In this document: positions 20,257 to 41,781 of the stretch, in pieces
Numbering within the stretch: the first letter of the stretch is position 1
Layout of the letters: each line of letters starts with the position of its first letter
Origin: Phycisphaerales bacterium
GTDB lineage: Bacteria; Planctomycetota; Phycisphaerae; Phycisphaerales; UBA1924
Assembly (NCBI GenBank): GCA_044371005.1
Contig: JBILUL010000007.1
Span: forward strand, 494 to 64,493
Length of the DNA stretch: 64,000 bases
Direction of reading: 5' to 3'
Made by a program: the position numbers and the translations under genes
Notes under the pieces: generated by a model
The model's input: the letters and a program-made list of their open reading frames with translations, nothing else
Database searches by the model: none
Told to the model about the DNA's origin: nothing

Positions 20257-20437
20257 CAAGACCCGCTGCCCGCATCCCTTATGCGCCGCGGCGAACACAT
20301 CCAGACCGCCCGCGAGGGCAGGCCCCGGGGACTGATCGTATTCTCGCCTGCTCCCCCGAAACCACCCTGGTCCCGCTGATTCACGGGTACGCGAGCGATC
20401 CGGCGAGGCGCCGTGCCGCCCATCGTGACGCTCCAGA

Positions 20438-22492: not shown

Positions 22493-22650
22493 GTGTCACT
22501 CCAGAAGTGTCCCGATGGTCAGAACCGACCCCGGTCCATGAGCCCCCTTCCAGTCTCACGGAAGGCAATCACCCGCCAATCATCGCCACCGCGCAGCGGC
22601 TCGGGGCGATCCCGAGGGGGCCGATTCTATGCGCACGCCCGTGTTGGCTG

Positions 22651-25600
22651 CTACCTGTCAAGCATCCGTTCGCAGCGGGCCAGCAACGCCTCAAGTTGCT
22701 GTCTGGTTCGGGGGTTGGTCACCCTCTCCGCACTGATCCTGGCATCAGCGGCCAGTTGGCGTGCACCCGGTCGGTGAAGCCCGGCCTGCGCCATCGCCAG
22801 AAAGACCCTGTTGAACGTCCTTCCAAGTTCGGTCGGTTCAGGGCGTGCAGAAGCGGTCGCCGTATTCAAGACACCCTCCGCCTCCGCGTACCGCCCCATC
22901 TGCACGCTCAGCGCCGCGTACGCAAACGCAATCCGTGACAGCGAGGCACGCCCTGTTGGTGATCGCGCCGCGCTCCACGCCCTGTAGAGCAGGCTCGCCG
23001 CGGCCAGATCCCGAGGCGTTCCCGTCCATGTCACGGCAATCTCGCACAGGTGCGCATCCAGACGCTGCTCAGGTCGCACCGACAAGTCATCATCCTGCAC
23101 CAGCAGCGCAGCCGCAATCCCCCGAGTGATCCCGTCCTCTCCTCCGATCGGATCCGCCAGATACCGCACCGCCGCCGCGACCACTCCGGCCGCGTTTGCC
23201 TCTTCCGGTCGGCGGAGCCCATCCGATTCCGACGCCCACGTCAGTGCCCTGAACGCACACTCCACGCTGCGACTCAGGATCTGCGGGGACCACACCGGCA
23301 CGTCACCCGGCACGCGCCGCACCGCCGATGGGACCGGTGCAGGTCCCTTGATTTCGCCATCCGGCCACCACCAAAGTTCCGCCCGCGGACCGCTCGTCGC
23401 ATACACAAGGGCGCTGCGTCCTGCCTGTCGCACACAGCGGACCTTGCCCTGATCACTGCTCGGGCCCGCAAGAAGCGAAACGATCGGCGAGTAGCTTTCG
23501 CTGAGCCACATATCGGGTTGAGGACACAGCAGCCGGACCGTGCCCGAACGACTTGCTCCGGCCAGTCGCCCAGAACCTGGCATGAAGGCGATGGACAGCA
23601 GACCAGCCAGATCATTGAAACGCCCACTGGGCCGGGCCTCCAGCCGTGCCCCCGGTTGCACACCCTCCACATCCCAAAGTGATATCCACCCATCGACCGA
23701 TGCGACCGCCACCCTCGAACCATCATCACTGATCGCCAGGCTCCCCTCCCGAAGGTCGTGTGGCTGGTGGAACCTCAATTGGTGGCTTACTTTGCGATCC
23801 GCGCCCCACAGCGAGAGCGTCCCATCAGCCCACAGTGCCGCCACCAAACATCCAGCCGCATCTGCCTTGATGCTCGCGATCCGACCTGTGCCCGAAGCGG
23901 GCGAAACCTCGCGGTGGCTCCCGTCGGAAATCGACAGAATGCCGATCGACCCGCCGGGCGTGCTGTAAATCACCTCGCGGCGATGCGCCAGCATGAGAAT
24001 CTGACAACCGGCAGGATCGCCCTCGCCGATGAAGTGCTCTGCCACCACCGTCAAAGCCCCCAGATCAATCACCAGAATCCGCCCGTGCTCCATCAGAACG
24101 GCTGCATGGCTTCCGTTGGCCTCACTCGACACTGAAACAGCAACCGCCCGCGAGGGCAGTGGAATGCGTGCCCAGGGCGAGGACATGCCCGTGCCGACGA
24201 CCGCGAGGAAGTCCACCCCCGCACCGCCCGGCACCACAAAAGCCATCACATCATCCCGGGCGTCCCAGCACCGCCAGCCCCGAGGATCGATGTACGTGGA
24301 TCGAGGCGCATTCCCAATGGGCACCATCGCGATCCGACCATCCGCCAGCTGGGCATAGCAGCGGCCCGCCGCCGACACCACAAGACTGGTCGCACCCGAA
24401 AGGTCGGGGCATCGCGCCGTGGCAACGCACGATCCGAGCCCCACGTCATGCTGGCGAAGCGTCCCATCCGCGTCGAGCGCAATCAGGCTTTCTCCATCCG
24501 CGATGAACGCGGCAAGCCGCGGCACCGCCGACTGCAGATGAATCGTCGCCTGCCTCACGGTCGCCACAAATCCAGGTGTGTCCGCCGCGTCAAGCGGCTG
24601 GCGAACCTCGAGCGACTCAATCGCCAGCGAACCGTCAGCCAGCGAACGTGCGATGCGACCGGTTTGCCGCAGCCCGGCGCCCCCCGGCCCGGAGCGCACC
24701 CCCACATCCACCGTCAACCTCATGCCAAGACGGGCATCCTGAACGCTGCCAAGCTGCTGCCGGATGTCGCCCGCCGCGGCTGCCCACAACTCCGGTGCCA
24801 CGCCCGCCGAGCCCGCCGTCACGAACAGGTCCGTCCCATCAACACTTGTCAGTTCCGACACCTCTGTCCCCACGTTCCAAGACACCACTTTCTGTTCGCT
24901 CGTGCTCCAGATCTGCAGGAGCCTGCCGGAGGCCGATTCACTCAACGCCGCGACATAGGCCCCGGTCCACGAGATGGCCGCGGCGAGCACCTTGCCTGAC
25001 TGCTCGGGCAACTCCACCATCCGCGGTTCACGAACTCGCGACCACATGAGTCGTCCACCCCGCACACAGGCAATACCAGCGACGTCACCGTCCAGCCAGG
25101 CACGCTCGATCGGTTCGGGCCCCAGCGACGTTTCACGCGGCGAAGATTCCCCCGTCTGCAAGGTCCACACGCTGCCACCGGCCGTCACCCACGAAACTGC
25201 TCCACGGGAAGAAGCCAACGCAATCACCGGCGTGGCGTTCGTGTGCACGAATCGGGGTGATCCCGGTTCATCCGGCCAGATCTCGACGCGAGCACCCATG
25301 GCACAGGCGATGCCGCCGCTGCTCCCCTCAACGCTGACCATGTGAACGCCCTGCTCGGCACCCGGGCCAGGGGTCGCGACAATCTGCACGGGCACAGAGA
25401 GCTGTGCATCAAGCAGCCGATACTCGAGGGATGTCCGGTTTGACTCGGCAACCATCGCCATCGTTGCGCGCGCCTGCGATGTCCCGTCGGCATCCAGGTG
25501 CCTTGCCACTTCAGACATCCGTCCCATGTCCTGGGACTGCGCGACCATCGCCAGCCGATGGCGTGACTGTCGATCCTTGTCGATGATCCGGATGGCCGAC

Positions 25601-26961
25601 CACGCCAGAATGCCGAAGATCAGCACCGCAACCGCCGATTGCCAGCGGTGTCGTTGGGCCCACCGCAGTGCCGTTCTCATCGGGGATGCCGGCCTCGCGA
25701 GAATCGGTCGACCCTTGAGTGAGTTGCGGATGTCCTGCATGAGCTCACGCACGGAGCTGTAACGGTGGGCAGGATCGCGCTCGAGCGCTCGCAGGACGAT
25801 CCAGTCAAGGTCCCCCGTCACTGCACGCACCAGTCCACGCGGCGACGTTCTGCGGCGAGACGCGATGGTCTGCGGTGATGGTGCCACCGGATCACGAACC
25901 GATCCGTCGGTTGGTTTGACGATTCCGGCCCGCCGCGGCGATGGCTCTTCTCGACGCGACTCGTGTCCTCGATGCCAGCGGCGGAACCGGATGCTGGGTC
26001 GGGGCGGATCCTGCTGGTGAAGGTGCCTGACACCCTCGCTGAACGACATTGATTCGAGGTTGCTCCAGTCAAAGGGCCCGATGCCCACCAGGAGTTCATA
26101 CAGCACCAGACCCAGGCTGTAAACATCCGTGCGTTCATCCAGCGCCGAGGTGGTCGAGACCGCCTGCTCCGGGCTCATGTACTGAGGCGTTCCGACCACC
26201 TTGCCGTGCACGGTCACCGCCTGGGATTCATCCCACGGGCGGTTATGGAGCGCCTTTGAAATGCCAAAGTCGATCACCTTGACTGTCTGAGTGTCATCCA
26301 CCCGCGAGACCAGAATGTTGGTGGGTTTGAGATCCCGATGCACAATCCGTTTGGTATGGGCGTGATGCACCGCATCGCAGACCTGCAGGAACAGCAGCAG
26401 TCGCGACTTGACCGACAATCGCTGCGCATCCGCGTGCGTCGTGATCGGCACGCCGGGCACGTACTCCATCACGATGTACGGATAGCCCTCCTGCGTGCGT
26501 CCGGAATCGAAGATCCCGGCGATGTTGGGGTGCCCCATCATCGAGAGCGCAATGCGCTCGGAGTTGAAGCGGCGGACGAACTCGCGAGAGTCCATTCCCG
26601 GCTTGAGCACCTTGATCGCAAACTGCCGCTCCACTGGTTCGGCCTGGCGTGCCAGATACACATCCGCCAGGCCTCCCTCACCGATCTTGCGAATCAGCGT
26701 GTAGCGGGATGGAATTGTCGGGAACGTGTCGGGTCGGTTCGCCCCGTCGGTCATGATGGAAAGTGGATCGTCCGTCACCGGGGAATCGATCCGCAGCTGA
26801 CCGCCCGCCGCGGCGAGCATGGCAGCCACTTCGGCGCGCAGCGAAGAGTCCGGCTCATTGGCCTCCAGAAACGCCATGCGCGCCTCCGGCGGCATCGCCG
26901 ACGCTCGGTCGTAGAGGTCGCACAGACGTTCGTACCGATCTTGCTGCTGTTGTGGTTCCAT
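22651..26961 (-). CDS. Receptor-type Ser/Thr protein kinase (N-terminal Hanks kinase, one TM helix, beta-propeller-like and TPR-like C-terminal region)
   Basis: ATG at 26961 (MEPQQQQDRYERL). Kinase motifs: IGEGGLADVYLA, AIKVLK, IVHRDLKPTNILV, KVIDFGISK, GTPQYMSPEQ. TM helix: SAVAVLIFGILAWSAIRII. The remainder is a ~900-aa repeat-like region. Confidence 0.9.
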   Translation of the reverse strand: MEPQQQQDRYERLCDLYDRASAMPPEARMAFLEANEPDSSLRAEVAAMLAAAGGQLRIDSPVTDDPLSIMTDGANRPDTFPTIPSRYTLIRKIGEGGLADVYLARQAEPVERQFAIKVLKPGMDSREFVRRFNSERIALSMMGHPNIAGIFDSGRTQEGYPYIVMEYVPGVPITTHADAQRLSVKSRLLLFLQVCDAVHHAHTKRIVHRDLKPTNILVSRVDDTQTVKVIDFGISKALHNRPWDESQAVTVHGKVVGTPQYMSPEQAVSTTSALDERTDVYSLGLVLYELLVGIGPFDWSNLESMSFSEGVRHLHQQDPPRPSIRFRRWHRGHESRREEPSPRRAGIVKPTDGSVRDPVAPSPQTIASRRRTSPRGLVRAVTGDLDWIVLRALERDPAHRYSSVRELMQDIRNSLKGRPILARPASPMRTALRWAQRHRWQSAVAVLIFGILAWSAIRIIDKDRQSRHRLAMVAQSQDMGRMSEVARHLDADGTSQARATMAMVAESNRTSLEYRLLDAQLSVPVQIVATPGPGAEQGVHMVSVEGSSGGIACAMGARVEIWPDEPGSPRFVHTNATPVIALASSRGAVSWVTAGGSVWTLQTGESSPRETSLGPEPIERAWLDGDVAGIACVRGGRLMWSRVREPRMVELPEQSGKVLAAAISWTGAYVAALSESASGRLLQIWSTSEQKVVSWNVGTEVSELTSVDGTDLFVTAGSAGVAPELWAAAAGDIRQQLGSVQDARLGMRLTVDVGVRSGPGGAGLRQTGRIARSLADGSLAIESLEVRQPLDAADTPGFVATVRQATIHLQSAVPRLAAFIADGESLIALDADGTLRQHDVGLGSCVATARCPDLSGATSLVVSAAGRCYAQLADGRIAMVPIGNAPRSTYIDPRGWRCWDARDDVMAFVVPGGAGVDFLAVVGTGMSSPWARIPLPSRAVAVSVSSEANGSHAAVLMEHGRILVIDLGALTVVAEHFIGEGDPAGCQILMLAHRREVIYSTPGGSIGILSISDGSHREVSPASGTGRIASIKADAAGCLVAALWADGTLSLWGADRKVSHQLRFHQPHDLREGSLAISDDGSRVAVASVDGWISLWDVEGVQPGARLEARPSGRFNDLAGLLSIAFMPGSGRLAGASRSGTVRLLCPQPDMWLSESYSPIVSLLAGPSSDQGKVRCVRQAGRSALVYATSGPRAELWWWPDGEIKGPAPVPSAVRRVPGDVPVWSPQILSRSVECAFRALTWASESDGLRRPEEANAAGVVAAAVRYLADPIGGEDGITRGIAAALLVQDDDLSVRPEQRLDAHLCEIAVTWTGTPRDLAAASLLYRAWSAARSPTGRASLSRIAFAYAALSVQMGRYAEAEGVLNTATASARPEPTELGRTFNRVFLAMAQAGLHRPGARQLAADARISAERVTNPRTRQQLEALLARCERMLDR

Positions 26962-27301
26962 GATCCCCGCGACGTGTCGCCTGCTCGCCAACCCACACCG
27001 TGCACTGGCGCGTGGCATCAGCAGCGAAGCGTACCAACCTTCTGGATGCGACCGCCACAGTAGCTGCTTGCGTTGGATTGAGAAGCCTCGCAAAGAAACC
27101 CATCGCGTGAACCGGATGCGCGACGGGCGATGTTTGATTGGTCTTTGTTTGGATTTCTTGCGAGGAGCGATGCTCGGGCTGCGCCCCATGAGAATGGCAC
27201 GGGCCTACGCTCTCGATCAAATTCTGACACCCTCTCAGGTATCAGGCGATCGAATGGTTCATCGCGGGGTGTGCGGTCGGAATGCTCAAGTGAGGTTTGG
27301 A

Positions 27302-27835
27302 ATGCGAATCAATCAGATGGTCATGGGTGCTGTCCTGGTTTCAGCACTGCTGGGCACGGGCTGCTGCACGAGCAACCCGGAGCCCAAGAAGGTCATGGCA
27401 GCGAAACTTGGCGGCAACTTCGCGCTTGCGGATGCTCCGGTTCCGCTGATCAAGGTCGACCTTGTCGGCATCCCCACCCAGGATCAGGAGACGATTCGCA
27501 TCATCTCGAACTCGGATGTGACCGCCTGGTTCTCCAGAACCGACCCGCGGTTCCTCGCCAACGAAGCCCGCATGATCAAGGGCGAGGTCAAGTACTTCGA
27601 TTCGACCCACCGGGGCGAGTTGGTCTACACCGATCAGGAACTCAAGGCAGCCTTCAAGACCGAAAAGCTCGATTCGATCACCATCATCGCCATTGCAGAC
27701 CTTCAGGGATTCACCTCAGTTCCCGGTCGCGATCCTCGCCTTGCCGTCAAATCTCTGGGGGGCGTGAAACTCTCGAGTGGCAACCTCTCCATCGTGGTGT
27801 CTCCCGACGGCGTCCGGATCAGTGAGTCCCGCTGA
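27302..27835 (+). CDS. Small lipoprotein (177 aa)
   Basis: ATG at 27302 follows GAGG. MRINQMVMGAVLVSALLGTGC is a signal peptide with a lipobox. The gene is divergent from the kinase gene and immediately upstream of the 1383-aa gene. Confidence 0.65.
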   Translation: MRINQMVMGAVLVSALLGTGCCTSNPEPKKVMAAKLGGNFALADAPVPLIKVDLVGIPTQDQETIRIISNSDVTAWFSRTDPRFLANEARMIKGEVKYFDSTHRGELVYTDQELKAAFKTEKLDSITIIAIADLQGFTSVPGRDPRLAVKSLGGVKLSSGNLSIVVSPDGVRISESR

Positions 27836-27909
27836 GCCCGAGTCCGCGGCCCAGAACACCTCGTTTCCGCGAGGTCGGCCTGAAACCCCTCCCGGTTCAT
27901 TGATCTGGC

Positions 27910-30900
27910 ATGTCGCAGAACATCGACATCAGTTCCGTTGCGCTCTCGAAAACGCCGCTGGTCGTGCAGGCTGCCGGATTGGTCGAGTCGTCGAAGGTCA
28001 CGCCCGGCACCGTTACGGTCGGTGGTCAGAGCCAGCCCGTCTGGGTCTTTGAACGCTCGAGAAAGCTGGGCGTTGATGTCGATACGGACCTGCTTGGCAA
28101 GGACGAGTTCAAGGGGAGCACCAGCGACCAGGTGGCGATGGCACAGGCCGCGCCCGGTGCCATGCTCCGGGTGCTCGCCTCAGGACAGTCAGGCGGCGAC
28201 GACGACTTTCGGATCTGGGCCATCACGCCGCAAGCGGGACAGTTGCTGCGTCCGGTCCTCCGACAGGGCAAGCAGCCGGACGATGAACTCGTGCGAGACA
28301 TCATCTGCGGCGTTCTCGCCGCACTGGTCGAGCTGGTCAACGGCACGGGTCGCTGGCACGGACGTCTCGGCGAGGACGATGCGATCGCATTCAGTCAGAC
28401 ACCCCAGGGCGTGCAACTCGTGCTCGCTCGGCCGAATTTCAAGGACCCGCTCTCAAAGGAGCGGGAAGAAGCCCTTAGTGCCAAGATTCGTCACGGCGGA
28501 GACGTCGATGATCTCAAGGATGTCGCCGATCTGCTGGCACAGGCCATCCTCAATGCCGCGGCACTTCCCAAAGTCCGGCGTTTTGCGCTGGCCGACGACG
28601 TGGACGCATGGACCCAGGCTCGCCCGAAGTCGGGGAAGGACTGGCACGCGATCTACAAGATGCTCCGCACCGCCGCGGGACGTAACCCCCCGGGAAGTGC
28701 TTCGGCAACATTCGCGCTGAATGAGATCACCAAGCTGTTGGGTCAGCCCAGACGTGCCAATACGAGGCCTCCCGCCGCGGCTGCGCCAGTTGCCCCCTCA
28801 CAAGCCGAGCAGGCGGCGAAGGCCAGGGAAGAGCGAGAGCGAGCGGCAGAGGCACAGGCTGCCAAGGTCAGGGAAGAGCGCGAGCGTGCGGCGGAGGCAC
28901 AGTCGACGAAGGCCAGGGAAGAACGCGAGCGAGCGGCAGAGGCACAGGCGGCGAAGGCTAGGGACGAGCGCGAGCGAGCAGCGCAGGCACAGGCTGCCAA
29001 GGCCAAGGAAGAACGCGAGCGGGCGGCAGAGGCTGCCAAGGTCAGCGAAGAACGCGAGCAGGCGGCAGAGGCACTGGCAGCGAAGGCCAAGGAAGAGCGC
29101 GAACGTGCGGTGCAGGAGCAGGCGGCGAAGGCCCAGGAAGAACGTGAGCGGGCAGCAAAGGCCAAGGAAGAACGCGAACGTGCGGCGAAGGAATTGGCAG
29201 CAAAGGCCAAGGAAGAACGCGAGCGTGCGGCGGAAGAGTTGGCTGCCAAAGCCAGGGAAGAACGCGACCGACTCGCGAAGGAGCAGGCGGCCAAAGCGAA
29301 GGAAGCACGCGAACGGGCAGCCGCGGCGAGCGCTTTTGAAGCTGAGGCAGATGAAGATTCCGGGTCAGTCTCCGCAGCGGCCGATCGGCTCGACAGCCAA
29401 CTCGTCGTTCCGGTCGAGGAGTCCTCAACGCGGCCTCAACGCCCTTCGAAGACCGATCCAAGCCGCACGTCTCCTGCTTCAGGCTCATCCGGAACGCAAG
29501 GCGGATCGTCGAAGCGATGGCTGCCGATCGCAGGAGTTGGCGCAGCGGTGTGCATTGCGGTGGTGGCGGTGGTGGTGTGGATGAATCGCCCATACAACCC
29601 GGATCGGGCACGTGAGGTCGCCAGAGAGTTAACGCTCAACGCACAGGACCTGGGCGATCCGAAGGACGAAAAGGAGGCTATTGCCAGTGTTGGCAAGCTG
29701 CTCAAGGGGCTCGAGTTTCGGGCAGAGACTGCCCCTGACGCACTTTCCAACGGCACCAAGGCCGTCTTGGATGAGGCGAACAGATTGTGGAACGCGAAGG
29801 CTGATACCTGGACAAAGCATCAGAGTTGGCCCGAAGAAAAAGCAATCGACAGTTGGAAACAGAGTATCCAAACGTGGACAGCGATCAAGCAGAAGCTGAA
29901 TGACGAAGTTCTCTCAGATGAAGGAAAGAAAGCGGAGTGGGAGATCAAGACCTTAGACAATCAGCCAGTTTCGCTGGAGAGCTTTGGGGGCTCGTTAGCA
30001 AAGAGACAGCGGGATGCGACGCAACATCCAACCGCTCCGCTCTACAGCGAAGCTCGCACGTGGTCGGGTGCTGATCCAAAACTGTCTTATGATCAGGTTC
30101 CGCGTGCAGTGGTTGAAAAGATCGCAGAGAAACTGGGGGCCGGGATTAGTCCAGATCAGCGAGCCAAGATCGAGGATCTTGTTGCTAAGCTCTTTAAGAG
30201 CAAGCCACAAAGCGGACCCCAACACGAAGACCTCGATGCACTGCTTCGCGAAATGAGTTCGCGGGGCCCTGATCAGAAAGGTGCGGACCAGAACGGCGGC
30301 GAGGCTGCTGCGACTGTCACACCGGAGCCACCGAAAGCAAAGTCAGTCGAGGAGGTGAAGAACGAGCTGGCCGAAAAGAACCCGTTTGTTAGAGCCCTGC
30401 TCGACAATAGGCACGTCAAGAGTGACGATTCGAAGGAGTGTCCGCCGGACACGAGGAAGAAGCTGACAGAAGAAGCGGAGCGACTGAAGCGGCTCGAGTC
30501 AGATCTTCTAGACTCGTGCAAAAAGCTGGTTGAGTGGAAAGCCGGCTCCCTCTCCGAGTTGGCCCAAACGGCCGACAAGCTCAGGGAACAGGTAGCAATC
30601 GCGGAGCTGCAGGAGGATCAGTGGAAGAATCTGCCTGAACCTGCACGTGAAGTGGTCGCGTACATCAAGAATCTGAAGAGTGAACCTCAAGAGTTGATCG
30701 AGGAACGCAAGAAGCTGCTCGGGGATTCAGCTGTTTCGAAATGGAAGCAGGGCCTGGTCGACTCCATACTGCTCCGGCTTAGAAATAAACTCTCCCAGAT
30801 TGCCGACAAGAACTGGGAGCAATTCGTCAGTTACGAGAACGCCGTCTTGGATATCCTCAGTAGCCCGGAAGGCAGCCGGTCTGACGAAGACATTGCCCGC

Positions 30901-32061
30901 GAGTTGGCACCGTTCATGGAGCAGTGGAAGAGCCGTCTGGCGAAGCTCGGGAGCGGATCGCCGCCATCGAGTCTCGCGACAGTGTTCATTGAGGGTTCGG
31001 AAACTCTGCCCAAGGACGTGCGATTTGTCTATTGGCGACATGTCCATGCTATTTGCTTAAGGTGGTTGATGAACACTCGCATTAACCTCGAAGGGAACCA
31101 GGTAACCCTAAGCCAAGAACAGTGGGACGGATTGATGGCTAGCCTGAAGCAGGAATTGAAAAGAGACTCGGAGCAAACCCGAGTGCTGCTATCCCATCGA
31201 TCTGCAGAAGAAAGGGGCACTTCAAGGTACATCGAGTTTGGCGATGGTGCGTTGAAGAATGTGACTCAGACGCTTTTGCCGGCAGCGACCGATGAAACGC
31301 AGTGGGTGCGTGTAACCCTCGGCGATACGGGCATTGTCTTCGGTAAGCACCGCAGCATGAAACAGTACGTTTCGGCCGACGAACTCTCGTGGCGTGCAGC
31401 CATGCAAGCGGGCGCAACGGTGTATGGAGATATCGGCCGGACCACCACGGGGCAGCGGCTGTTGCTTCGGACATTCACGAGAGACAAGGACAGCATTTGG
31501 TTCAATCACATGGCAAAGCTCGAGTTCACTGGGGATGACATGTATCCGGTACAGGGCATGACTTTTGATGAAGCGGTTGGGCTAGCAACTGCCCTTGGGT
31601 GCGTGCTCCCCGATTCGACCTCGATGCAGAGTATCGCAGAGCTGAGCAAGGGTGAAGGAAATCGAGTTCCAATTCCTGATGACGAGGACGATGGGAAGCC
31701 AGGCACGCAAAGAAGTAAGCAAAGAAGAAACCCGGCGTTCTTTCCGATGGACAACCAGATTGCGATCGACCTGACTTCGGCAATCGGGAAACGGCAGGTA
31801 GCTGCATTTGCCGAAAACCTGAAGAAGGTCAACGAAGAGGCCGGCTGGAGCAACGTGACGGCAAATGTTGCGGAGTGGTTGCAAGACGGGCGTGCATTTG
31901 GTGGCTCGGCCTTTACAGAAGCGAGTGATGGCATAAAGGACATCAGCAAGGCGTACTGCAACGTCGGCATGCGGCTCGCCGCCCCCGCCGCTCCTCCGGA
32001 ACCTGTAAAAACCACCTACACGATCTTCCTAGACAAGCCGCCGGCAAAGCCGCCGGCGTAG
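27910..32061 (+). CDS. 1383-aa single-pass membrane protein: kinase-like(?) N-domain, 12 x 15-aa charged repeats, TM helix, long helical region, degenerate FGE-sulfatase (SUMF1)-like C-terminal domain
   Basis: Uninterrupted ORF. Repeats of the form AKAREERERAAEAQA. TM helix: WLPIAGVGAAVCIAVVAVVVWM. C-terminal motifs YPVQGMTFDEAVGLATALGCVLP .. ANVAEWLQDG .. NVGMRLA follow the FGE-domain motif order (V.w.dA..y....g.rLP .. GNv.EW .. iGFR). Confidence 0.8.
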   Translation: MSQNIDISSVALSKTPLVVQAAGLVESSKVTPGTVTVGGQSQPVWVFERSRKLGVDVDTDLLGKDEFKGSTSDQVAMAQAAPGAMLRVLASGQSGGDDDFRIWAITPQAGQLLRPVLRQGKQPDDELVRDIICGVLAALVELVNGTGRWHGRLGEDDAIAFSQTPQGVQLVLARPNFKDPLSKEREEALSAKIRHGGDVDDLKDVADLLAQAILNAAALPKVRRFALADDVDAWTQARPKSGKDWHAIYKMLRTAAGRNPPGSASATFALNEITKLLGQPRRANTRPPAAAAPVAPSQAEQAAKAREERERAAEAQAAKVREERERAAEAQSTKAREERERAAEAQAAKARDERERAAQAQAAKAKEERERAAEAAKVSEEREQAAEALAAKAKEERERAVQEQAAKAQEERERAAKAKEERERAAKELAAKAKEERERAAEELAAKAREERDRLAKEQAAKAKEARERAAAASAFEAEADEDSGSVSAAADRLDSQLVVPVEESSTRPQRPSKTDPSRTSPASGSSGTQGGSSKRWLPIAGVGAAVCIAVVAVVVWMNRPYNPDRAREVARELTLNAQDLGDPKDEKEAIASVGKLLKGLEFRAETAPDALSNGTKAVLDEANRLWNAKADTWTKHQSWPEEKAIDSWKQSIQTWTAIKQKLNDEVLSDEGKKAEWEIKTLDNQPVSLESFGGSLAKRQRDATQHPTAPLYSEARTWSGADPKLSYDQVPRAVVEKIAEKLGAGISPDQRAKIEDLVAKLFKSKPQSGPQHEDLDALLREMSSRGPDQKGADQNGGEAAATVTPEPPKAKSVEEVKNELAEKNPFVRALLDNRHVKSDDSKECPPDTRKKLTEEAERLKRLESDLLDSCKKLVEWKAGSLSELAQTADKLREQVAIAELQEDQWKNLPEPAREVVAYIKNLKSEPQELIEERKKLLGDSAVSKWKQGLVDSILLRLRNKLSQIADKNWEQFVSYENAVLDILSSPEGSRSDEDIARELAPFMEQWKSRLAKLGSGSPPSSLATVFIEGSETLPKDVRFVYWRHVHAICLRWLMNTRINLEGNQVTLSQEQWDGLMASLKQELKRDSEQTRVLLSHRSAEERGTSRYIEFGDGALKNVTQTLLPAATDETQWVRVTLGDTGIVFGKHRSMKQYVSADELSWRAAMQAGATVYGDIGRTTTGQRLLLRTFTRDKDSIWFNHMAKLEFTGDDMYPVQGMTFDEAVGLATALGCVLPDSTSMQSIAELSKGEGNRVPIPDDEDDGKPGTQRSKQRRNPAFFPMDNQIAIDLTSAIGKRQVAAFAENLKKVNEEAGWSNVTANVAEWLQDGRAFGGSAFTEASDGIKDISKAYCNVGMRLAAPAAPPEPVKTTYTIFLDKPPAKPPA
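28816..29334 (+). repeat. Tandem in-frame repeat, 12 units of ~45 nt (15 aa; two shortened units)
   Basis: Units are AKAREERERAAEAQA, AKVREERERAAEAQS, TKAREERERAAEAQA, AKARDERERAAQAQA, AKAKEERERAAEA, AKVSEEREQAAEALA, AKAKEERERAVQEQA, AKAQEERERA, AKAKEERERAAKELA, AKAKEERERAAEELA, AKAREERDRLAKEQA and AKAKEARERAAAASA. Confidence 0.9.
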
Positions 32062-32129
32062 TCTTGACCGGACCCCAGCGGAGGTCACGCGGCCTCTGGC
32101 CGCCTCCCTGCGTGATCACCGCGGACCTC

Positions 32130-35100
32130 TCACTTCCCCGGCCCGCTCGTCTTCCCCGGTTCGCTCACATAGTTCAGCTGGCTCAGATCGGGCCTGGGCG
32201 CTGCCTGCGGCTTGAGTTCCACCTTGAAGCTCAGTCGGAATCCCACATCGCTGAAGCCCTTGCCGCGGCGGTTCTCGCCAAGCTCGATGGGATCCGTTCC
32301 CGTCGGGTCGGACAGAGCCGAACTGCCAGCGATCCACGTGGTTCGATCCGGCGAGATGGCGAACTCGGCAACGTTTCCGCGACGGAAGGCAGGTATCGCT
32401 TCACTTAGCGGCCCGGCGGGTGCGAAGAACGCGATTTCATCGGGCACATCGCTGTGCACCGCGAACCCCGCATCGTCCGTCACCTTGACCTTTGACTGAC
32501 CGCTGAAGAGCACTGAATCCGACGCGTGCGAACGGAGATTGCTCGGGGCGTACGGCTGTCTGCGAAATACAACAGGGGGCTTCTTGGCCAGTTCCTGGAC
32601 CTTGGTGTAGTACTCTTCGTGGAACGTCTTATCGCGCAGGTTGGAAATCTCCGAAGGCGAGGCTGCACTATACCAACTCACCTCCGGAAGCTCCATTCCG
32701 CAGACCGCAGCGAGCACCTGCGCGTCCTCAAAGGAGACATAGTTGAAGGGGTACTGCAATTCCGACCCGGCCTTCAACCCCAGTGGACCTTCTGCAATCT
32801 CCTGGGGCAGGTCGCCGGAGATGGTTGGGCCGAGTGTGCCCTTTCTGAGCCCAGGCAGCTTGCCGTAGGGCTGCCCGGCGTCATCCTTTCCCCCCTCGTC
32901 AAGCATCTCATAGGTCTGCAGCGGGCGAGTCTTGCCGCCGTCATCATTCATCCTGGCCTGCAACGCCGTGCGACGATCTGCAGGCAACGCCATCATCAGC
33001 GCTCGCGCCAACTCCACGGTTGTCTCGGTCGCAGCCACGTAACGGATGCTCTGGCCCGACCTTGCCGGAATGAATGTCACCGCAACGCCGTTGATCTTCA
33101 CGACTGCCACGGCGTCGGGGCCAGCGGGGTTCACCTCAAGCCTGCAAACCCCGTTGGATCCAATGGCCGCAGAAATCGCTTCGCCCACGTTCGGTTCCGC
33201 TTCCGGCGGCTTCAGATACTGCTGGAGCAGTTCAAGCTGCGCTTTCACCCCGCCCCCCGGGCTCTTCGCTTCCAACTCGGTCAGCAGCGGTTCCAGTTCC
33301 CGGGCAAGGGGATCCTGATCGGCTCCCGGGGCCCCATTGGGGCGTGCTCGCAGTGCATTGATGAGCAGGTTGGCACGAACCCAGTTCGGATAGCCGCTAC
33401 GGATCGTGTCAGGCGCCTGGCTGAGCAGATGCACCCACACAGCAGTGGCTCCCGCGTCGTTGCTGGCGACCGCGGCACCAAGCCGCTCCGACACGCGCGT
33501 CGTGATCGCGTCTGCCCAGTTGGGCGACTTGAGCATTCCATCGACGGACTTAGCCACGAGGGGCTGTGTCACATCTGCGGCTGGCAGGGTCTTCAGCAGT
33601 TCAAGAAACAGCGTGCCCCGAAGCCGCGGCATGATCGCCTCGACCAGCGCATCATCCTTCGATGTAGCCGGCGGCTCGACCGCAGCGGGAACATCCTTTT
33701 CCCAGAGCGTTCGAGCCTTGGCGGGGTCGTTCAGGGCGTCCTTGAACTCCTTGACAAGCTGCAAGATCTTCGGGTAGTCCGTCGCGGGAAGTTTGGCGAG
33801 GTCGTTAAACGCGGGTTCGTTGACCTTGAGCGGCTGCGGACCCGTTCGAAATGCCGTTTCGATCTTGGTCGCAAGGTCTGCGGCTGCCTGCTCAGCATCA
33901 AGCATTGCCCGGACTTGGGAGACAGCCTTGTCGGTTTCGCTCTTCCACGCATCAAAAACCAGCGGGTCCGCTCCCTCGATCGCTGCTTTGAAGGCTGCGG
34001 TCGCCGCGGTCTTCATCGAGGGATCCTTGGCCACTTTTTCCGCATGCGCGGCACACTGTCGAAGCACCTTCCATCGGTCGATCGCCGCGAACTGTTCTTT
34101 GACCTTGTCCTGCACTTCCTTGCCGCTGATGAGTGACTTCCATGCATCCGCATCGACTCTGGCGGGGAGTTGGCCCTTGAGTTGGTCGGCAAAGTCCTTC
34201 GGCAAGTCATCCATGTCGGCCGCTGGCACTAACCGATTGATCGCGGACGCGAGAGATTGGAGTACGTCCATGCGACCGGATTCGATCCCCGTTGCGTCGA
34301 AATTCACTTCCAGGTTCTCGTGGAGGCGTACCTTGACGTAGTCGTGGGATTCCTTCAGCTTGGACTTGAACGACCTCTGCGATTGCTCGCTGCCGTCGGG
34401 GAACTTGATCGCATCGAGATCGTTGAGAAACTGACCAAACTCAACGAGCGATTCGCGGCTGCTGGCTGAAAGCTCCACCTTGCCTTCGTCCCGCGGCTTG
34501 GGCGGAGTATCCGTCACGGGCTTGTCAGTCCCGGGCTTGATTGTGGTATCGACGTGCTTCTGCCCGTTTCCATCGTTATCCGAGCCCTTCCCCTTGTTCT
34601 GCAGCGCCCACCATCCGACAGCAGTCGCTGCGACCAGCGTCGCACCAAGTCCAGCCAAGACGACCGCGGAAGGGCCACGTCGTGGCTCATCAGCCGCCGC
34701 GGGTCGAGGGGCTTCGACTGCGGGTGACGGTGTAGGTTTCGGGGCGACAGTTGGCCGCGGAACCGCCTTGACGGCCGCGGCGACCTTTCCTTCAAGGGCT
34801 GACATCGAGCCGGGCTTGCTTGCCGGTTCATGCACTGTGGGAAGTGGTGACTCCTTGAGCCACGCATCAAGCATGCCACGGATCTGGGCAGTCTCATCGG
34901 TTGGTGGCGTTCGCCCACGCTCGGCAGTCATGGCGCCCTTGCCGCCGCGCCCGATGCCGATGGCTGCGATGTCAGAGGCCTTGCACGGGCCAACGAAAAG
35001 GTCGATCCAGTCACCCTTGAGCGGCACCACCAGCAGTGAATCCGCATCGGGGCCGCAGATCTTCCGAAGCAGTGATGCATGAGCAATCAATGATGCGCCA

Positions 35101-35837
35101 GCGGATTCCGGCATCCCGCCGATCACGGGAACCCGCACATGTGGCATCGAAGCGTTGCTGTGCCAGGCTCCCTTCACAGGGTCGCGTGCCAGTTTCAACT
35201 CAACCAGAAGCTCATGAATGGTTCGGATGAGCCCGGCGCGATCCGGGCCCAGCTGCGGGGTATCCGCAAGTGCGAGCCGCTCAGCCGGGAGGAGGCCGGA
35301 TGCCGGCGGGATGGCGCGAGCAGCTGATGCGAAGGCATCGAGCGAGGCAAAGAGATCTTCTCTGGTTGCCGCGGCGACCAGCGGTTGTGCATACTGCGAG
35401 AGCAAATCAAACAAGGGTGGGGCAACGGCTTCGGGCGGGCAATGCCCGCAATCCCACGCGGCAAAACTCACCGTGCGCCGCCCTTCGGTCGTGCCGTCGC
35501 GTGTGGGCGTCAGTTGCCCCGCGATGCAATGCTCACCCTTCGAGTCGACGATTCTGGCCAGGAAGAGATGGGTCGTGGGAAGCACGACCGATTTCGCCGT
35601 CGATTCGCCCGGTGCCTCCATCTCCGACGCATGACCCGAGAGCTTGATCGACCAGTCGAACATCCGTGACTTCACCACCTTGAGCGGCGAACTCACCCCG
35701 GTGATCCCCAGACGCGACTGGGCCTCGCCATCATCGGAAGTTGCGTGGTCGATGTACTCGGCCCAGAGCCGATGCTTGCCAAACATCGCCAGCCTCTGAC
35801 CGCCGGCCGCCGGGTTGGGAGTGGGGGAGGGATTCAT
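32130..35837 (-). CDS. TagF-like (DUF2094-like) N-terminal domain fused to a TM helix, a long helical region and an FGE-sulfatase-like C-terminal domain
   Basis: The ATG at 35837 lies 11 nt after the tssM stop. AMFGKHRLWAEYIDHA and IAGQLTPTRDGTTEGRRTVSFAAW resemble the TagF motifs fGKlP..gDF and G.m.PS.D.vGR.fPl. TM helix: VVLAGLGATLVAATAVGWWAL. C-terminal motifs are YPFNYVSFEDAQVLAAVCGMELP .. GNVAEFAI .. FSDVGFRLS. Confidence 0.7.
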   Translation of the reverse strand: MNPSPTPNPAAGGQRLAMFGKHRLWAEYIDHATSDDGEAQSRLGITGVSSPLKVVKSRMFDWSIKLSGHASEMEAPGESTAKSVVLPTTHLFLARIVDSKGEHCIAGQLTPTRDGTTEGRRTVSFAAWDCGHCPPEAVAPPLFDLLSQYAQPLVAAATREDLFASLDAFASAARAIPPASGLLPAERLALADTPQLGPDRAGLIRTIHELLVELKLARDPVKGAWHSNASMPHVRVPVIGGMPESAGASLIAHASLLRKICGPDADSLLVVPLKGDWIDLFVGPCKASDIAAIGIGRGGKGAMTAERGRTPPTDETAQIRGMLDAWLKESPLPTVHEPASKPGSMSALEGKVAAAVKAVPRPTVAPKPTPSPAVEAPRPAAADEPRRGPSAVVLAGLGATLVAATAVGWWALQNKGKGSDNDGNGQKHVDTTIKPGTDKPVTDTPPKPRDEGKVELSASSRESLVEFGQFLNDLDAIKFPDGSEQSQRSFKSKLKESHDYVKVRLHENLEVNFDATGIESGRMDVLQSLASAINRLVPAADMDDLPKDFADQLKGQLPARVDADAWKSLISGKEVQDKVKEQFAAIDRWKVLRQCAAHAEKVAKDPSMKTAATAAFKAAIEGADPLVFDAWKSETDKAVSQVRAMLDAEQAAADLATKIETAFRTGPQPLKVNEPAFNDLAKLPATDYPKILQLVKEFKDALNDPAKARTLWEKDVPAAVEPPATSKDDALVEAIMPRLRGTLFLELLKTLPAADVTQPLVAKSVDGMLKSPNWADAITTRVSERLGAAVASNDAGATAVWVHLLSQAPDTIRSGYPNWVRANLLINALRARPNGAPGADQDPLARELEPLLTELEAKSPGGGVKAQLELLQQYLKPPEAEPNVGEAISAAIGSNGVCRLEVNPAGPDAVAVVKINGVAVTFIPARSGQSIRYVAATETTVELARALMMALPADRRTALQARMNDDGGKTRPLQTYEMLDEGGKDDAGQPYGKLPGLRKGTLGPTISGDLPQEIAEGPLGLKAGSELQYPFNYVSFEDAQVLAAVCGMELPEVSWYSAASPSEISNLRDKTFHEEYYTKVQELAKKPPVVFRRQPYAPSNLRSHASDSVLFSGQSKVKVTDDAGFAVHSDVPDEIAFFAPAGPLSEAIPAFRRGNVAEFAISPDRTTWIAGSSALSDPTGTDPIELGENRRGKGFSDVGFRLSFKVELKPQAAPRPDLSQLNYVSEPGKTSGPGK

Positions 35838-35848
35838 GGCGTGGTGTT

Positions 35849-38800
35849 TCAGGGGGCGACGAGGTCGGAAGCGTTGACCTTGATGAACGAGCGGCCTTTG
35901 GCAACTTCAAGGGTGAAGGTCAGTGTCGTTTTCCCTTTCCCATCGCCCTCGGGGCCGACCGTGCTAACGGTCACGGAGTTAGTGGCGCTGTCAAGCCACT
36001 TCTGAACAAGACATGCCCAGACCGCGATCTCGCCATCGCAGATGAGTCCGACCATCTTGCCACCGTCGTTCACAGTTCGGTAGAACGAAAGCCGCGTCAC
36101 TGCCGTCAGGGGAACAGGCTTGCCAATCTCCGGGGTGGTCAGGGCTTCGTCAATGGCGTACGTGTTAAACTGGTAGCGGTTGAAACTCTCGACCTTGAAG
36201 GTCCAGTTGCTGCGCTGCTTGAGTGACAAGTAGTTGTTGAGCAGCAGCTCTAGTGCCTGTCTTGCCTTGTTTGCCGAATCCGACGACCATGATGGCAGTC
36301 GACATTCCATCAAATCGGGGCATTCGCCTGATGCCGACCCGGCCTTGGCTGCGACCTTGGCCGCTTCGATGAGGTACTCGGTCGCCAGAATTGCGTCATC
36401 GATCTGCTGATCTGCTATCTTCTGATCTGCAGAAATCACTGGAACTCCAACACCAACGCAGGCCGGTGCTTTCTTGACGAGATCGAAGCTGGCAGCGACC
36501 TTTGCCGCGGCGAGGTTCCTCGATTCGGTCTTGAGCAGGCTTACTGTTCGGTCGAACAACTCCTGCGCCCATAAGCCCCGCGTCGGGCGATCGCGACACG
36601 TCAGCAGATTCTGACTGACCAATTCGTAGAGAATCTTGGCTGCCTCGGAGTCGGTTGCCTTGTCGGCCAGCGTCGCCATCGCATTGGCGTTCCATTCTTC
36701 AAAACCAGCGAATGGACCAAGCTCGCCACATGCCGTCAGCTCATTGCTGAGTGTTACGAACATCATCGACACCTTGGTCGCATTGCCAAGCAGGAACCGC
36801 GTCGTATTCCAGTCGGCCACCTTGATCCTCTCAATAAGGCGAGCTGGAACAAGCGTGATGGCATTGACGAGATCTTTCCTGGACCGAGCGATGCTGTCGG
36901 CTGCAGATCTCCGCTGTGTCTCGATGGACTCCTTCTCAAACTTGAGGGTCGTACCGACGGCTTTGAGCGTCTGGTCAAGCTGTTTCAAGCTTGCCGCATT
37001 GCGCTTCCCTTCGAGCTCTGTCCAGTTGCGCAGATCACCCCACAGAGTGGAATCGACTCCATCCACCCATTCCGTACGCCTGACGTTTCCAAGCGCTGTC
37101 TGGACCTCTCTGATCTGCTCGCGAGCATCCAGCCATTCATTTCTTGGCTTGAGCACCTTTTCGTTGATCGCTCCAGCAAACTCCGATTGTGGCTCGATTG
37201 TGGCCTTCTCCTCAGACTTAGACAACCTCGCGAGCACATCAGAGTACTCGGTCCGATTCTTGAAGTCCGTCTTCCACTTGCTCCCGTCTCGCTTGATCAA
37301 TCCAGCGGACATTGTCGAGTATTTCGTCCTTGCATCGGCGAGGTTTTTCTTGAAGTCCTGCAGAGTGCGCAGTGTTCCCGCCAGGGAGTCCTGCAACGCG
37401 CTCAGTTGCGTCACACGCGAGACGCACTCTTCAAGGTCGGCGGCGGCAATGTCGCACAGTGCGCTGAAGGATGCAAGATCCGTGTCGTTCTCAGCCCCCG
37501 TCACATGAGTCGGCTTGAACGTGCAAGCAAGCGTCTTCTCGAGCTCTTTCAGGCGACCATCAAGTTGGTTCCAGGTGCTCGTGAACCCTGGGGTTGCATT
37601 CGTCACCTCTTGATTGGTCTTGGCTTCGAGAGCTTTGGCGGTCGTCTCGAGCATCTCCTTGTCCTTCGCGATCTGATTGCTCAGCGAAACTGCCCGGTAC
37701 ACGAGTTCCACGCGGTTGCTGCGATCGGTGATGTCCTTGAGTTTCTGCCGGTTCTCAACCGGGAGCGACTGTGCATAAAGCTCGCACAGCTCCTTAAGCC
37801 GATCCGACTTGAGCGCATCAACTTCGGCCAGCTTCGTCTGGGTCCGCAGAGCCAGTTCCCCATTCTTGTCGGTGGGTGCTCCGGCCTCGTTATTGAAGAC
37901 GCTCAGGCACCCAAAAAGCAGCGCCGCATCGTCACTGCCGCCGACTTGGTCGGCGATCAGTTTCTTCAGTTCCTTTGGCCCAAGGCTGGCGTTCTTCGAA
38001 CTCCTTGAAGCGTAGAGCAGCAAGGTTTCAATCGACGGGAACTGTTCGGGCTTGATGGCGGCGGGCTTGGCCTTCGGGCCTGGCGGTGCAATGAGTGCGG
38101 CGAGCTTGAAGAGTTCCGAAGCCGCATCGACCGCAGCCTGATCCCAAGGATGGCCTTCGGAGTTTTCTTCCGAAGGAAGCGAACTTTCAAGCTTCTTGTA
38201 CGTTGCCTGCGCCAGCGGCTTGAGCAGCATTACTTCAACCGCGAGCTTTGCCGCGTCTTCACGAGCTTCCTCCGCGAGGTTGCGTTCGACCGGGTAGATC
38301 GGGGACGAGAAATCCGCCTGGCTCGCGCGCAGAATCGCGATCAGTTTCATGGCTTCGCTTGGAAGCACGCTGGAGTTCTTGTCGATGATCGCGCTCTTGT
38401 CCTTGTCCAGGAAGTCTTCGCGATTGTCCGTGCTCAGCGCTGTTGCCAGCGTGTTGAGACTGTCACTGTGGCCTCCGATCTGACGGTGAAGTGACCATAC
38501 GCCGTACGAAGTGATCAGCAACCCCAACACGGCGGCGACCGCCGTGCTCACGATGGCGATCATGCTCCGACGCCAGTCCTCCTGTGCGATGTTCCCGGTT
38601 GTGGCGACCAGACCCGCTTCCTTGGTCACCTTGTTGGCGATCAGATCGTGGATGAACAGGCCAGTGTCGCGCTTTACCGCACCGGCGCCCATCTGCTCGA
38701 GGCGGCTCATCAGTTCATCGCGATTGTTGCCGAAGCTCGCCAGCAGGTCGTCATCGATGGCGATTCCCTGCGAGAGCGAACTGGTGAAATAGACGCCGCG

Positions 38801-39967: not shown

Positions 39968-40066
39968 GTATAGCTCTTCCTGATTCTGGATCAATGCTTC
40001 AGATACTCAATGCACATCGGTGCAACGCGAAAACGCCAAGGTGCGCGCACCAGGCCGCTCAACGGA

Positions 40067-40879
40067 TCATTTCGCCGAACCAGTCCCCTGGTCTGAATCC
40101 GGTTTTGGCTCCGACTTCTTGGTGACAGGTTCCGCCGATTGCTTGTCGTTTCCCAGTCGAACCCTATAGACGTCCTGGATCGCCTTGGTAGTTTGCTTTA
40201 CCGTCAGGGTGGCGAAGTAGAAAGCACCAAAGTACGCGATGATCACGAACCCGATGATTGCCACCAGGGTGACACCCGACTGCTTGATGCGGACGCTCGG
40301 CGGCGGTTCCACCGCCTTCTCTTCGATGAAGGGCTTTCCGGTGATCAGCGCCGGGAGCGACCGCGCCGAGTCATCGATGCCCAGTGAATCACGCAGACGC
40401 CCCATGTAGTCATTGAGCGTCTGCGGTTCGCGATTCCGGTCGCCATTGAACCCAAGTTCAAGCGCCCGCAGCATCACTTCGCGGCGGCCCCGCGTCTGAT
40501 CCGCGGGATTGTCGAGGAGGTACTCAAGGTGCTTGAAGAACAGGTCGGCCCAGCCCTGGTCGTGATAGGGCGCGCCAGCCGAGATCTGCTTCCACGCCTG
40601 ACGCAGCTGTCCATCGAACCGCCACGCGGTGTCATCGATCAGATGGCAGAGTGTCCGATGCACGCCGATGGTCGACAGCTCAATGTCGTTGTTGCCAGGC
40701 TCGGCGACATTGAACTCATCGCCAAGGCCCATTGCTTCCGCGTTGGCCTTGGCCTGTTCCAGTGCCGCCATCGCATCCCGCTGAAGCCGAGACACATCAA
40801 ACTTGGCACGCATGTGCCGCATGCGGTTCATTTGACACACGAATACGAACACCGGCTCGCACGCTTCCAGCATTGACAT
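40067..40879 (-). CDS. tssL: T6SS membrane-complex protein TssL (DotU family)
   Basis: ATG at 40879 (MSMLEACEPVFVFV). DotU-like order: LCHLIDDTAWRF..W....ADLFFKHLEYLLDNP...REVMLRALELGFNG. C-terminal TM helix: VTLVAIIGFVIIAYFGAFYFA. Confidence 0.85.
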   Translation of the reverse strand: MSMLEACEPVFVFVCQMNRMRHMRAKFDVSRLQRDAMAALEQAKANAEAMGLGDEFNVAEPGNNDIELSTIGVHRTLCHLIDDTAWRFDGQLRQAWKQISAGAPYHDQGWADLFFKHLEYLLDNPADQTRGRREVMLRALELGFNGDRNREPQTLNDYMGRLRDSLGIDDSARSLPALITGKPFIEEKAVEPPPSVRIKQSGVTLVAIIGFVIIAYFGAFYFATLTVKQTTKAIQDVYRVRLGNDKQSAEPVTKKSEPKPDSDQGTGSAK

Positions 40880-41649: not shown

Positions 41650-41781
41650 GGCAGAGTTCCGATCAGGAAAGCGAGGGGAGAGTGACACTCGCCTCCACCG
41701 GCAGAGCATATGACACTTCTGATGGGTTCGTGGCACGGCATGCGGGGGAGAGCGAGGGGCAAGGGCAAGGTGCGGGAGATC

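Follow-up and report, generated by a model that had tools for sequence, protein, structure and literature searches.

A TagF-like membrane protein and a predicted pseudokinase with related FGE-like C-terminal domains in a planctomycete type VI secretion gene cluster

The window analysed here is a 64,000-nucleotide stretch of the genome of a Phycisphaerales bacterium (GenBank assembly GCA_044371005.1, contig JBILUL010000007.1, positions 494–64,493 of the forward strand). It has a G + C content of 59–65% and carries a type VI secretion system (T6SS) cluster in rearranged form. Between a Ser/Thr kinase gene and tssM lie three open reading frames (ORFs), at the coordinates that an earlier reading of the DNA letters (the sequence-only reading) had given: a lipoprotein-like ORF of 177 aa (27302–27835, + strand), the gene for protein B of 1383 aa downstream of it (27910–32061, + strand) and, convergent with B, the gene for protein A of 1235 aa (32130–35837, - strand). 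The gene for A starts 11 nt past the stop codon of tssM (35849–39994, - strand; Pfam IcmF-related_N, E 1.1e-38; TIGR03348, E 2e-63), and tssM is preceded by tssL (DotU; 40067–40918, - strand; Pfam DotU, E 2.6e-12). The identical locus is present on five or six JGI metagenome contigs, where the JGI gene callers predict the same three ORFs. The evidence presented below indicates that A is a TagF-like protein continued by a transmembrane (TM) helix and a periplasmic domain resembling the formylglycine-generating enzyme (FGE), and that B carries a homologous C-terminal domain behind a predicted pseudokinase.

An exhaustive phmmer search with residues 10–1209 of A against 1.84 billion representative proteins matched 14 proteins, 10 of which align to its first ~330 residues and have the motifs FGKHPGWDDH and S.DGKGR..YP in common. 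The relative P0005 matched Pfam TagF_N below the threshold (17.2 bits, E 0.005; cutoff 27 bits). Residues 1–330 of A (34848–35837, - strand) were modelled with AlphaFold2 (AF2) on an 11-sequence alignment (pLDDT 81.3, pTM 0.84), and the model was compared to the PDB with Foldseek. The top match was TagF of Acinetobacter baylyi (9t0n; E 3.3e-8, probability 1.0, TM-score 0.54/0.55), followed by four chains of Pseudomonas aeruginosa TagF (6iz8; E ~1.5e-3, probability 1.0); after both TagFs the best match was FLCN, at 3e-2. Because the top matches of the model are the two solved TagFs, the cytoplasmic N-terminal domain of A is, judged by its predicted structure, a TagF fold, in agreement with the sequence-only reading, which had called A TagF-like.

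This relationship is visible by structure comparison only. Profile A1, the TagF profile of the family, found no TagF among the PDB sequences, and Pfam TagF_N (PF09867, DUF2094) did not match A, including residues 1–330 at E ≤ 10. Within the A1 alignment G20, K21 and D114 are conserved. In P. aeruginosa TagF, G8, K9, D15, F16, S79, D81, R85 and P88 are needed for function (PMC5995506). Aligned by eye, loop 1 of A (FGKHRLWAEY) keeps the GK and has E-Y in place of D-F, while loop 2 (PTRDGTTEGRR) keeps the D, has T for S and a displaced R, and has lost the P.

Behind its TagF-like domain A has a single TM helix (residues 389–411; 34605–34673, - strand), the sole hydropathy peak of the protein. Its periplasmic linker (residues 412–904; 33126–34604, - strand) is poorly conserved, and parts of it align with the relatives P0003 and P0004 only; residues 451–750 are low in Pro and Gly and high in A, E, L and K. 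Protein B has a single TM helix as well (residues 536–560; 29515–29589, + strand; hydropathy peak 2.7), followed by a periplasmic linker (residues 561–1089; 29590–31176, + strand) for which no homologs were detected. Judged by composition, the middle regions of both proteins are predicted to be helix-prone. Both have one strong hydrophobic segment, no N-terminal signal peptide and N-terminal domains of cytoplasmic types. The K/R bias flanking the TM helix favours an N-in orientation in both families (29 vs 11 in TagF-like proteins, 25 vs 3 in the family of B), the values for A alone (3 vs 2) and B alone (2 vs 3) being uninformative. We infer that A and B are both oriented N-in/C-out.

The C-terminal ~330 residues of A matched P0004 (E 2.8e-16), P0012 and P0014 in the representative search, which together with profiles delimits an FGE-sulfatase-like domain at residues 905–1210 (32208–33125, - strand), lacking the catalytic cysteine pair. 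The gathering score of Pfam FGE-sulfatase (PF03781; 23.3) was passed by P0012 (32.4 bits) and P0014 (32.0), and by proteins of the family of B from the loci L079 (33.8 bits), L047 (29.2), L055 (27.3) and L059 (26.2); in the direct PF03781 scan of A and B neither matched. Profile A2, made of 5 sequences with the A-type domain, gave 18 matches in the PDB, all 18 of the FGE fold (best E 0.0015). The last 294 residues of B (residues 1090–1383; 31177–32058, + strand) were aligned to A2 with hhalign at a probability of 94.8% (E 4.8e-8, 149 columns; 94.7% in a local repeat), through all of the invariant motifs (P..LGC.LP, NVAEW, GGSA and VG.RLA). By these profile alignments A and B have homologous C-terminal domains, which belong to one subfamily. 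The similarity of the two proteins that had been claimed from the letters thus holds at profile level and fails in BLASTP, where the best alignment of A to B, on the motif YP....SFEDA..LA...G..LP, was not significant (E 0.25).

Further members gathered from related loci gave profile A7 (29 sequences, A and B included). Compared to the PDB it matched Streptomyces FGE (E 8.3e-10) and human SUMF1 (1.3e-9), and also SUMF2, EgtB and OvsA; CalU17 was aligned across nearly the whole domain (positions 87–274 of 296), and PorK/GldK was reached weakly (E 0.004). All 28 PDB sequences at E ≤ 1, with the exception of one CotH, have the FGE fold or are FGE-like. Where FGE has its copper-binding cysteine pair (GGSYLCHDSYC), the aligned family segment reads GGSALSPP, and A and B have no cysteine there. 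Because this pair is absent, both C-terminal domains are predicted, by fold assignment from profiles, to be non-catalytic domains of the FGE-sulfatase type and not FGE enzymes. The subfamily is marked by the motifs LVGNVAEF, GGSALS.P and GFSDVGFRLAF and is found, with few exceptions, at the C-terminal end of TagF-like and pseudokinase membrane proteins that are linked to the T6SS. An iterated HMM search that started from canonical verrucomicrobial FGE domains did not reach A or B. In a neighbour-joining tree of the FGE-like domains the copies borne by TagF-like proteins and those borne by the family of B are not cleanly separated, so that the date of the duplication cannot be read from the tree.

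The family of B, here called X, was collected by searching all ORFs of the related loci with an HMM of the A/B-type domain, and metagenome contigs with the domain alignment. In 16 genome loci a second ORF with this C-terminal domain was found ~8 kb upstream of the TagF-like gene, truncated there by the end of the locus. The 32 full-length X proteins, recovered from the metagenome contigs, have an N-terminal domain of ~250 aa, a TM helix (mostly at residue ~250–285), a periplasmic region of ~450–1600 aa and the C-terminal FGE-like domain. Their N-terminal domain is kinase-like in sequence (for example ...RPHGNLKPSNVLL...LTDP...), and 3 of 10 X proteins gave sub-threshold matches to Pfam Pkinase (PF00069; 13–21 bits against 31.7). 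When the first 300 residues of B were compared to the N-terminal domains of 23 X proteins, hhalign gave a probability of 92.9% (E 3.6e-7, 174 columns). Thus both ends of B match, and B is, on profile evidence, a member of the conserved X family.

Profile A9 (16 N-terminal domains, B included) matched 577 kinase chains in the PDB at E ≤ 1, among them StkP (1.6e-10), PknI (8e-8) and PknA, and delimits a degenerate protein-kinase-like domain at residues 1–290 of B (27910–28779, + strand; hhalign). In the kinase alignment HGNLKPSN of X pairs with HRDLKPQN. The catalytic loop reads HGNL[KR] in 24 of the 31 distinct N-terminal domains, with Asn for the catalytic Asp of HRD, and that Asp is kept (HGD) in a single one. 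The GxGxxG loop is absent in 27 of the 31, and D-P stands for DFG in 24. Protein B is more degenerate than the other members, with WHGRLGEDD as catalytic loop and a W at the position of the VAIK lysine. Since most X proteins and B have lost the HRD Asp and the glycine-rich loop, and B the VAIK Lys as well, X and B are predicted to be pseudokinases, the N-terminal domain of B having a kinase fold without catalytic residues. Between this domain and the TM helix B has a highly charged spacer, in which helix formers make up 94–98% of residues 301–450. Here, on the cytoplasmic side of the membrane, lies a charged tandem repeat (28810–29315, + strand) with a period of 45 nt (15 aa, QAAKAREERERAAEA-like), for which TRF reported ~8 copies plus overlapping rows, ~8–11 in total. 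Repeats of the QAAKAREERERAAEA type are absent from most X relatives, the TM helix of which is located at about residue 250.

In searches with the single sequences A and B gave no result. Pfam and NCBIfam scans returned nothing, even with excised sub-domains at E ≤ 10; PADLOC gave nothing and phmmer against the PDB nothing meaningful, the lipoprotein-like ORF being included in both. A word-indexed homolog search with A, the periplasmic part of B and the N-terminal domain of B returned the query itself or nothing, probably due to low-complexity words saturating the candidates. The sequence-only reading had counted the absence of a DUF2094 or FGE-sulfatase match as evidence against itself. Taken literally that is what the single-sequence scans gave, and the homology shows with family profiles and a structure model only. 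Those same profiles, together with the hydropathy plots, do bear out its description of A as continuing into a TM helix and a degenerate FGE-like domain, and of B as having the layout and the C-terminal domain of A. That the cytoplasmic domain of B is a predicted pseudokinase, and that its family is normally encoded upstream of tssK, goes beyond it.

To place A and B in their wider context, one genome per GTDB species was scanned with the FGKHPGWDDH-type alignment (A3). This yielded 331 relatives, of which the best 80 were analysed. Almost all of these 80 are labelled Verrucomicrobiota or Planctomycetota (Pirellulales, Planctomycetaceae, Phycisphaerae and Sedimentisphaerales). By tblastn a TssM was detected in at least 69 of these loci, each time upstream of the TagF-like gene and on its strand; the spacing between the two leaves room for a divergent C-terminal half of TssM. 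Four classes of TagF-like ORFs could be distinguished: soluble proteins of about 320–420 aa (31/80), short proteins that end in a TM helix or are truncated just after it (7/80), proteins with a TM helix and a periplasmic extension (39/80; 540–1950 aa in total) and ORFs at a contig end in which no TM helix was seen (3/80). A TM helix after the TagF domain, positioned as in A, is thus present in 46 of the 80. Pfam FGE-sulfatase matched at least 19 of the 39 periplasmic extensions (best E 1.6e-21); TPR was found in about seven, and Ig or Big_9 in single cases. Ten long TagF-like proteins of Planctomycetes end in the A-type domain. Among its homologs P0003 (1154 aa, 30% identity) is closest to A and has the same three-part layout.

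On three contigs the order around P0003 is tssK-tssL-tssM-P0003-...-shlB. P0013, which combines TagF-like, TM, Big_9 and FGE-like parts, lies in the order shlB-x-tssK-tssL-tssM-P0013-tssA-tssB-tssC-hcp-tssE-tssF. These two cases and the tssM linkage in the 80 loci confirm the proposed association of the TagF fusion with tssM in other genomes. Of the 30 X genes that are followed by 5 kb or more of sequence, 23 have tssK/L/M downstream. Planctomycetota typically show the order u684 - X - preK - tssK - tssL - tssM - tagF-like - (shlB-like) - tssA - tssB - tssC, and the convergent arrangement of the TagF-FGE gene and the X gene seen in the window recurs on contig L135 and probably also on L162. 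The sequence-only reading had suggested that these genes were specific to one lineage; on the contrary, the module is widespread in Planctomycetota and Verrucomicrobiota.

In the Verrucomicrobiota loci L010–L035 the TagF-like proteins combine TPR repeats with an FGE-sulfatase domain of the canonical kind (best Pfam E 1.6e-21). Verrucomicrobiota loci, L076 excepted, almost never show a gene of the X type with the A/B-type domain at the corresponding place upstream, and Planctomycete loci nearly always have one. Planctomycetota and Verrucomicrobiota thus seem to use different versions of the module. In L079 (Planctomycetaceae) a gene for a 622-aa caspase protein (Peptidase_C14, E 4e-19; 14586–16454, + strand) follows the TagF-TM-FGE gene, at a position where other loci have the ShlB-like gene.

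Two further genes accompany this set. The 684-aa product of u684 (20438–22492, - strand) has no Pfam match; in 21 related loci the X gene has a strong homolog of it (E 1e-72 to 1e-100) immediately upstream, whereas in the window u684 is located between the Ser/Thr kinase and an extracytoplasmic function (ECF) sigma factor. By this conservation u684 is a putative further accessory gene, as yet uncharacterised, of T6SS clusters of the Planctomycetes-Verrucomicrobia-Chlamydiae (PVC) group. In 38 related loci a conserved gene, preK, separates X from tssK; that of the window (366 aa; 46927–48027, + strand) lies directly upstream of tssK (48049–49515, + strand). Two of its relatives gave weak matches to Pfam T6SS_FHA_C (E 0.0016 and 0.0047) without an FHA domain, and preK may encode an Fha-like scaffold without phosphothreonine reading, a candidate partner of TagF.

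Downstream of tssK the window contains genes for a ShlB-like protein (49717–51786, + strand) and a 3301-aa TPS-domain protein (51917–61822, + strand), followed by tssA (61881–62981, + strand). A gene for a ShlB/TpsB-like outer-membrane protein is found next to the TagF-like gene in many PVC T6SS clusters, namely in L005, L006, L009, L101, L116, L117, L140, L145, L150, L152, L154, L156 and L164. The two proteins look like a two-partner secretion pair embedded in T6SS clusters.

Further T6SS components in the window are PAAR proteins (11378–13405, + strand; 14517–16130, - strand; about 41350–41736, - strand), VgrG (16238–19609, - strand) and a DUF4123 adaptor (45581–46279, - strand). The region of PAAR and effector genes is bordered by genes for a DDE_3 transposase (8526–9515, + strand), a WD40 protein (9594–10838, + strand) and a leucine-rich repeat (LRR) protein (5968–7725, - strand). 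These flanking genes fit a rearranged cluster, in which tssK and tssA are on the strand opposite to tssL and tssM. The TIGR03348 match of TssM covers model positions 42–554 of 1168 only, and its C-terminal periplasmic ~800 aa did not match the known TssM C-terminal domain. No TssJ was recognised among the window ORFs scanned, as the sequence-only reading had noted.

The Ser/Thr kinase (22651–27189, - strand) is a 1512-aa protein with WD40 repeats (Pkinase, E 2e-40, then a TM helix, then WD40 and TPR). It looks active, but it adjoins the ECF sigma factor, which is of the planctomycete type (19687–20460, - strand; PF07638, E 1.2e-37). Kinase, u684 and sigma factor genes (19687–27189) share one orientation, upstream of vgrG, and may together serve the spike/effector operon as a transcriptional module of the kinase-ECF type.

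The N-terminus of the lipoprotein-like ORF resembles a signal peptide and ends in ..LLGTGCC, and the ORF is probably co-transcribed with B. It had been grouped tentatively with A and B. A lipoprotein-like ORF is indeed present in front of B, but since no homolog was found in ~160 related loci it was rejected as a part of the A/B module. It was also rejected as TssJ (PF12790), as it matched nothing in Pfam, NCBIfam, the PDB or PADLOC and is not conserved in the related loci.

TagF acts post-translationally on T6SS assembly, as a brake or checkpoint, and binds Fha in Pseudomonas and Agrobacterium (PMC5995506). A. baylyi TagF binds Hcp and has to be brought to the cell periphery by the bitopic TagZ, the periplasmic domain of which is variable (bioRxiv 10.64898/2025.12.08.692957). 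Against this background we consider it probable, though by a small measure, that A and B together form a phosphorylation-independent, transmembrane version of the TagF/PpkA-type control of T6SS assembly. The TM helix of A would hold the TagF domain at the inner membrane beside TssM and TssL, from where this domain would gate the assembly of the sheath on the baseplate. The paralogous FGE-like domains of A and B would bind a common envelope ligand or each other, and in this manner the two cytoplasmic heads, TagF and pseudokinase, would receive information on the envelope without a phosphorylation step. As a pair, A and B would be the counterpart of the PpkA/Fha/TagF pathway. No threonine phosphorylation pathway (PpkA-PppA-Fha) was recognised in the scanned ORFs of the window; FHA and PP2C domains were found neither there nor in the Pfam lists of L005 and L009, in a scan that was not exhaustive. 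This, together with the weak T6SS_FHA_C signal in preK, is consistent with phosphorylation-independent control.

Several observations weigh against such a regulatory role. Neither protein has a direct Pfam or NCBIfam match. The signature loops of TagF are kept in A in part only, as aligned by eye, and an AF2 model of the C-terminal domain of A on a 6-sequence alignment was of too low confidence (pLDDT 34.6) to show an FGE-like fold. The known partner of TagF, an FHA-domain protein, was not found in the scanned ORFs, with the weak T6SS_FHA_C match in preK as the only trace. The occurrence of a soluble TagF of ~320 aa in 31 of the 80 loci implies that the system can do without the periplasmic extension. 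Finally, a purely structural role would fit the same data.

In the latter case A and B would be structural parts of a trans-envelope complex and would serve as its outer anchor, in a lineage in which TssJ was not recognised among the scanned ORFs. The periplasmic half of TssM is likewise unrecognisable (IcmF-related_N and the first half of TIGR03348 being all that matched), X is nearly constant in Planctomycete clusters, and the periplasmic regions are long (about 500–1600 aa). PorK/GldK, an FGE-fold lipoprotein that forms a periplasmic ring in type IX secretion, offers an analogy, and it was reached by profile A7 (E 0.004), although this match is far weaker than that to FGE. We regard a structural role as possible but doubtful: TagF-fold and pseudokinase heads on the cytoplasmic side are typical of regulators, the linker regions are poorly conserved, and the extension of the TagF-like proteins is absent in 31/80 and variable in content where present (TPR, Ig, Big_9 or nothing). 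Elements of both roles would be combined if the FGE domains of A and B were lectin-like and paired mutually or with the cell wall or outer membrane, thus replacing a TssJ-type anchor while coupling envelope contact or damage to sheath assembly in Planctomycetota and Verrucomicrobiota, independently of phosphorylation; we offer this as a speculation that is unlikely to hold.

It would also be conceivable that A alone belongs to the T6SS and that B is an unrelated membrane protein, brought next to A by chance after a rearrangement. No full-length homolog of B was detected, the gene is on the opposite strand, and the cluster is rearranged, with tssK and tssA on the other strand and a DDE transposase nearby. 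Such a coincidence is improbable, however, as both ends of B match the X family (N-terminal domain 92.9%, C-terminal domain 94.8%), 23 of 30 X genes lie in synteny with tssK/L/M, the convergent arrangement recurs in L135, and u684, the usual predecessor of X, is also present in the window. Least credible is the view that the FGE-like domains are active enzymes (formylglycine-generating or related oxidases) acting on an effector or sulfatase, with an incidental link to the T6SS. Planctomycetes encode many sulfatases, and the family profile is homologous to FGE/SUMF1. Yet both copper-binding Cys align to non-Cys residues in the family consensus and in A and B, the domain terminates membrane-anchored TagF and pseudokinase proteins, and the synteny is with tssK/L/M and not with sulfatase genes. 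An active FGE was rejected on account of the missing cysteine pair.

In open-access papers and bioRxiv preprints we found no description of a TagF fusion with either a TM helix or an FGE-sulfatase domain, of a pseudokinase-FGE protein in T6SS clusters or of T6SS accessory genes of Planctomycetes or Verrucomicrobia. A phylogeny of 655 TagF homologs discusses diverse C-termini and does not mention Planctomycetes or Verrucomicrobia; the term 'transmembrane' occurs there three times and refers to TagZ and TsmK, not to TagF (bioRxiv 10.64898/2025.12.08.692957). Protein A would thus represent a new architectural variant of TagF, and B/X a new T6SS-associated family of predicted pseudokinases, both made from known folds. 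How TagF is positioned and controlled is a current question, on which A, as a TagF fused to its own membrane anchor and a conserved periplasmic domain, provides natural evidence that membrane tethering matters; its architecture hints at periplasmic input controlling TagF. Moreover, X, u684 and preK define a set of T6SS accessory genes in a superphylum that is large and of ecological importance and whose T6SS has a divergent TssM and an unrecognised TssJ. If true, type VI would be the second secretion machine, after type IX with its PorK/GldK, to contain non-catalytic FGE-fold domains.

Among known systems A is most directly comparable to TagF of the P. aeruginosa H1-T6SS (PA0076; 6iz8/2QNU) and of A. 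baylyi (ACIAD2683; 9t0n), with which it shares the fold by Foldseek, a gene position immediately behind tssM and, as aligned by eye, the GK motif and the SxD Asp. However, TagF in its canonical form is soluble and cytoplasmic and has about 210–330 aa, whereas A adds a TM helix and ~820 periplasmic residues, is not matched by Pfam TagF_N and keeps the Fha-binding loop residues in part only. In TagF-PppA of Agrobacterium tumefaciens (Atu4331; PMC5995506) TagF is likewise fused to a second module within a T6SS cluster. There the module is a cytoplasmic PP2C phosphatase, while in A it is a TM helix with a periplasmic FGE-like domain, and unlike in the Atu4331 cluster no kinase/phosphatase/FHA pathway was recognised in the window. 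In the TagZ-TagF pair of A. baylyi, TagF is brought to the membrane by the single-pass TagZ, the periplasmic domain of which is dispensable and has no predicted fold (bioRxiv 10.64898/2025.12.08.692957). Protein A unites both roles in one chain and has instead a conserved FGE-like domain in the periplasm; no sequence relationship was seen between TagZ and the TM/periplasmic part of A.

For B and X the closest likeness in layout is to PpkA and to receptor kinases of the Ser/Thr kinase-TM-FGE-sulfatase type, which also combine a kinase fold, one TM helix and a sensor-type periplasmic domain. Like PpkA, B/X is encoded in a T6SS cluster alongside TagF. They differ from PpkA in the change of HRD to HGN in X and HGR in B, in the lack of a glycine-rich loop and, in B, in the W for the VAIK lysine. 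In addition, the periplasmic domain of PpkA is vWA-like and not FGE-like. The C-terminal domains of A and B belong by profile search to the same domain superfamily as FGE/SUMF1, SUMF2 (pFGE) and PorK/GldK, and have the absence of the catalytic cysteine pair in common with SUMF2 and PorK, but form a subfamily distinct from all of these.

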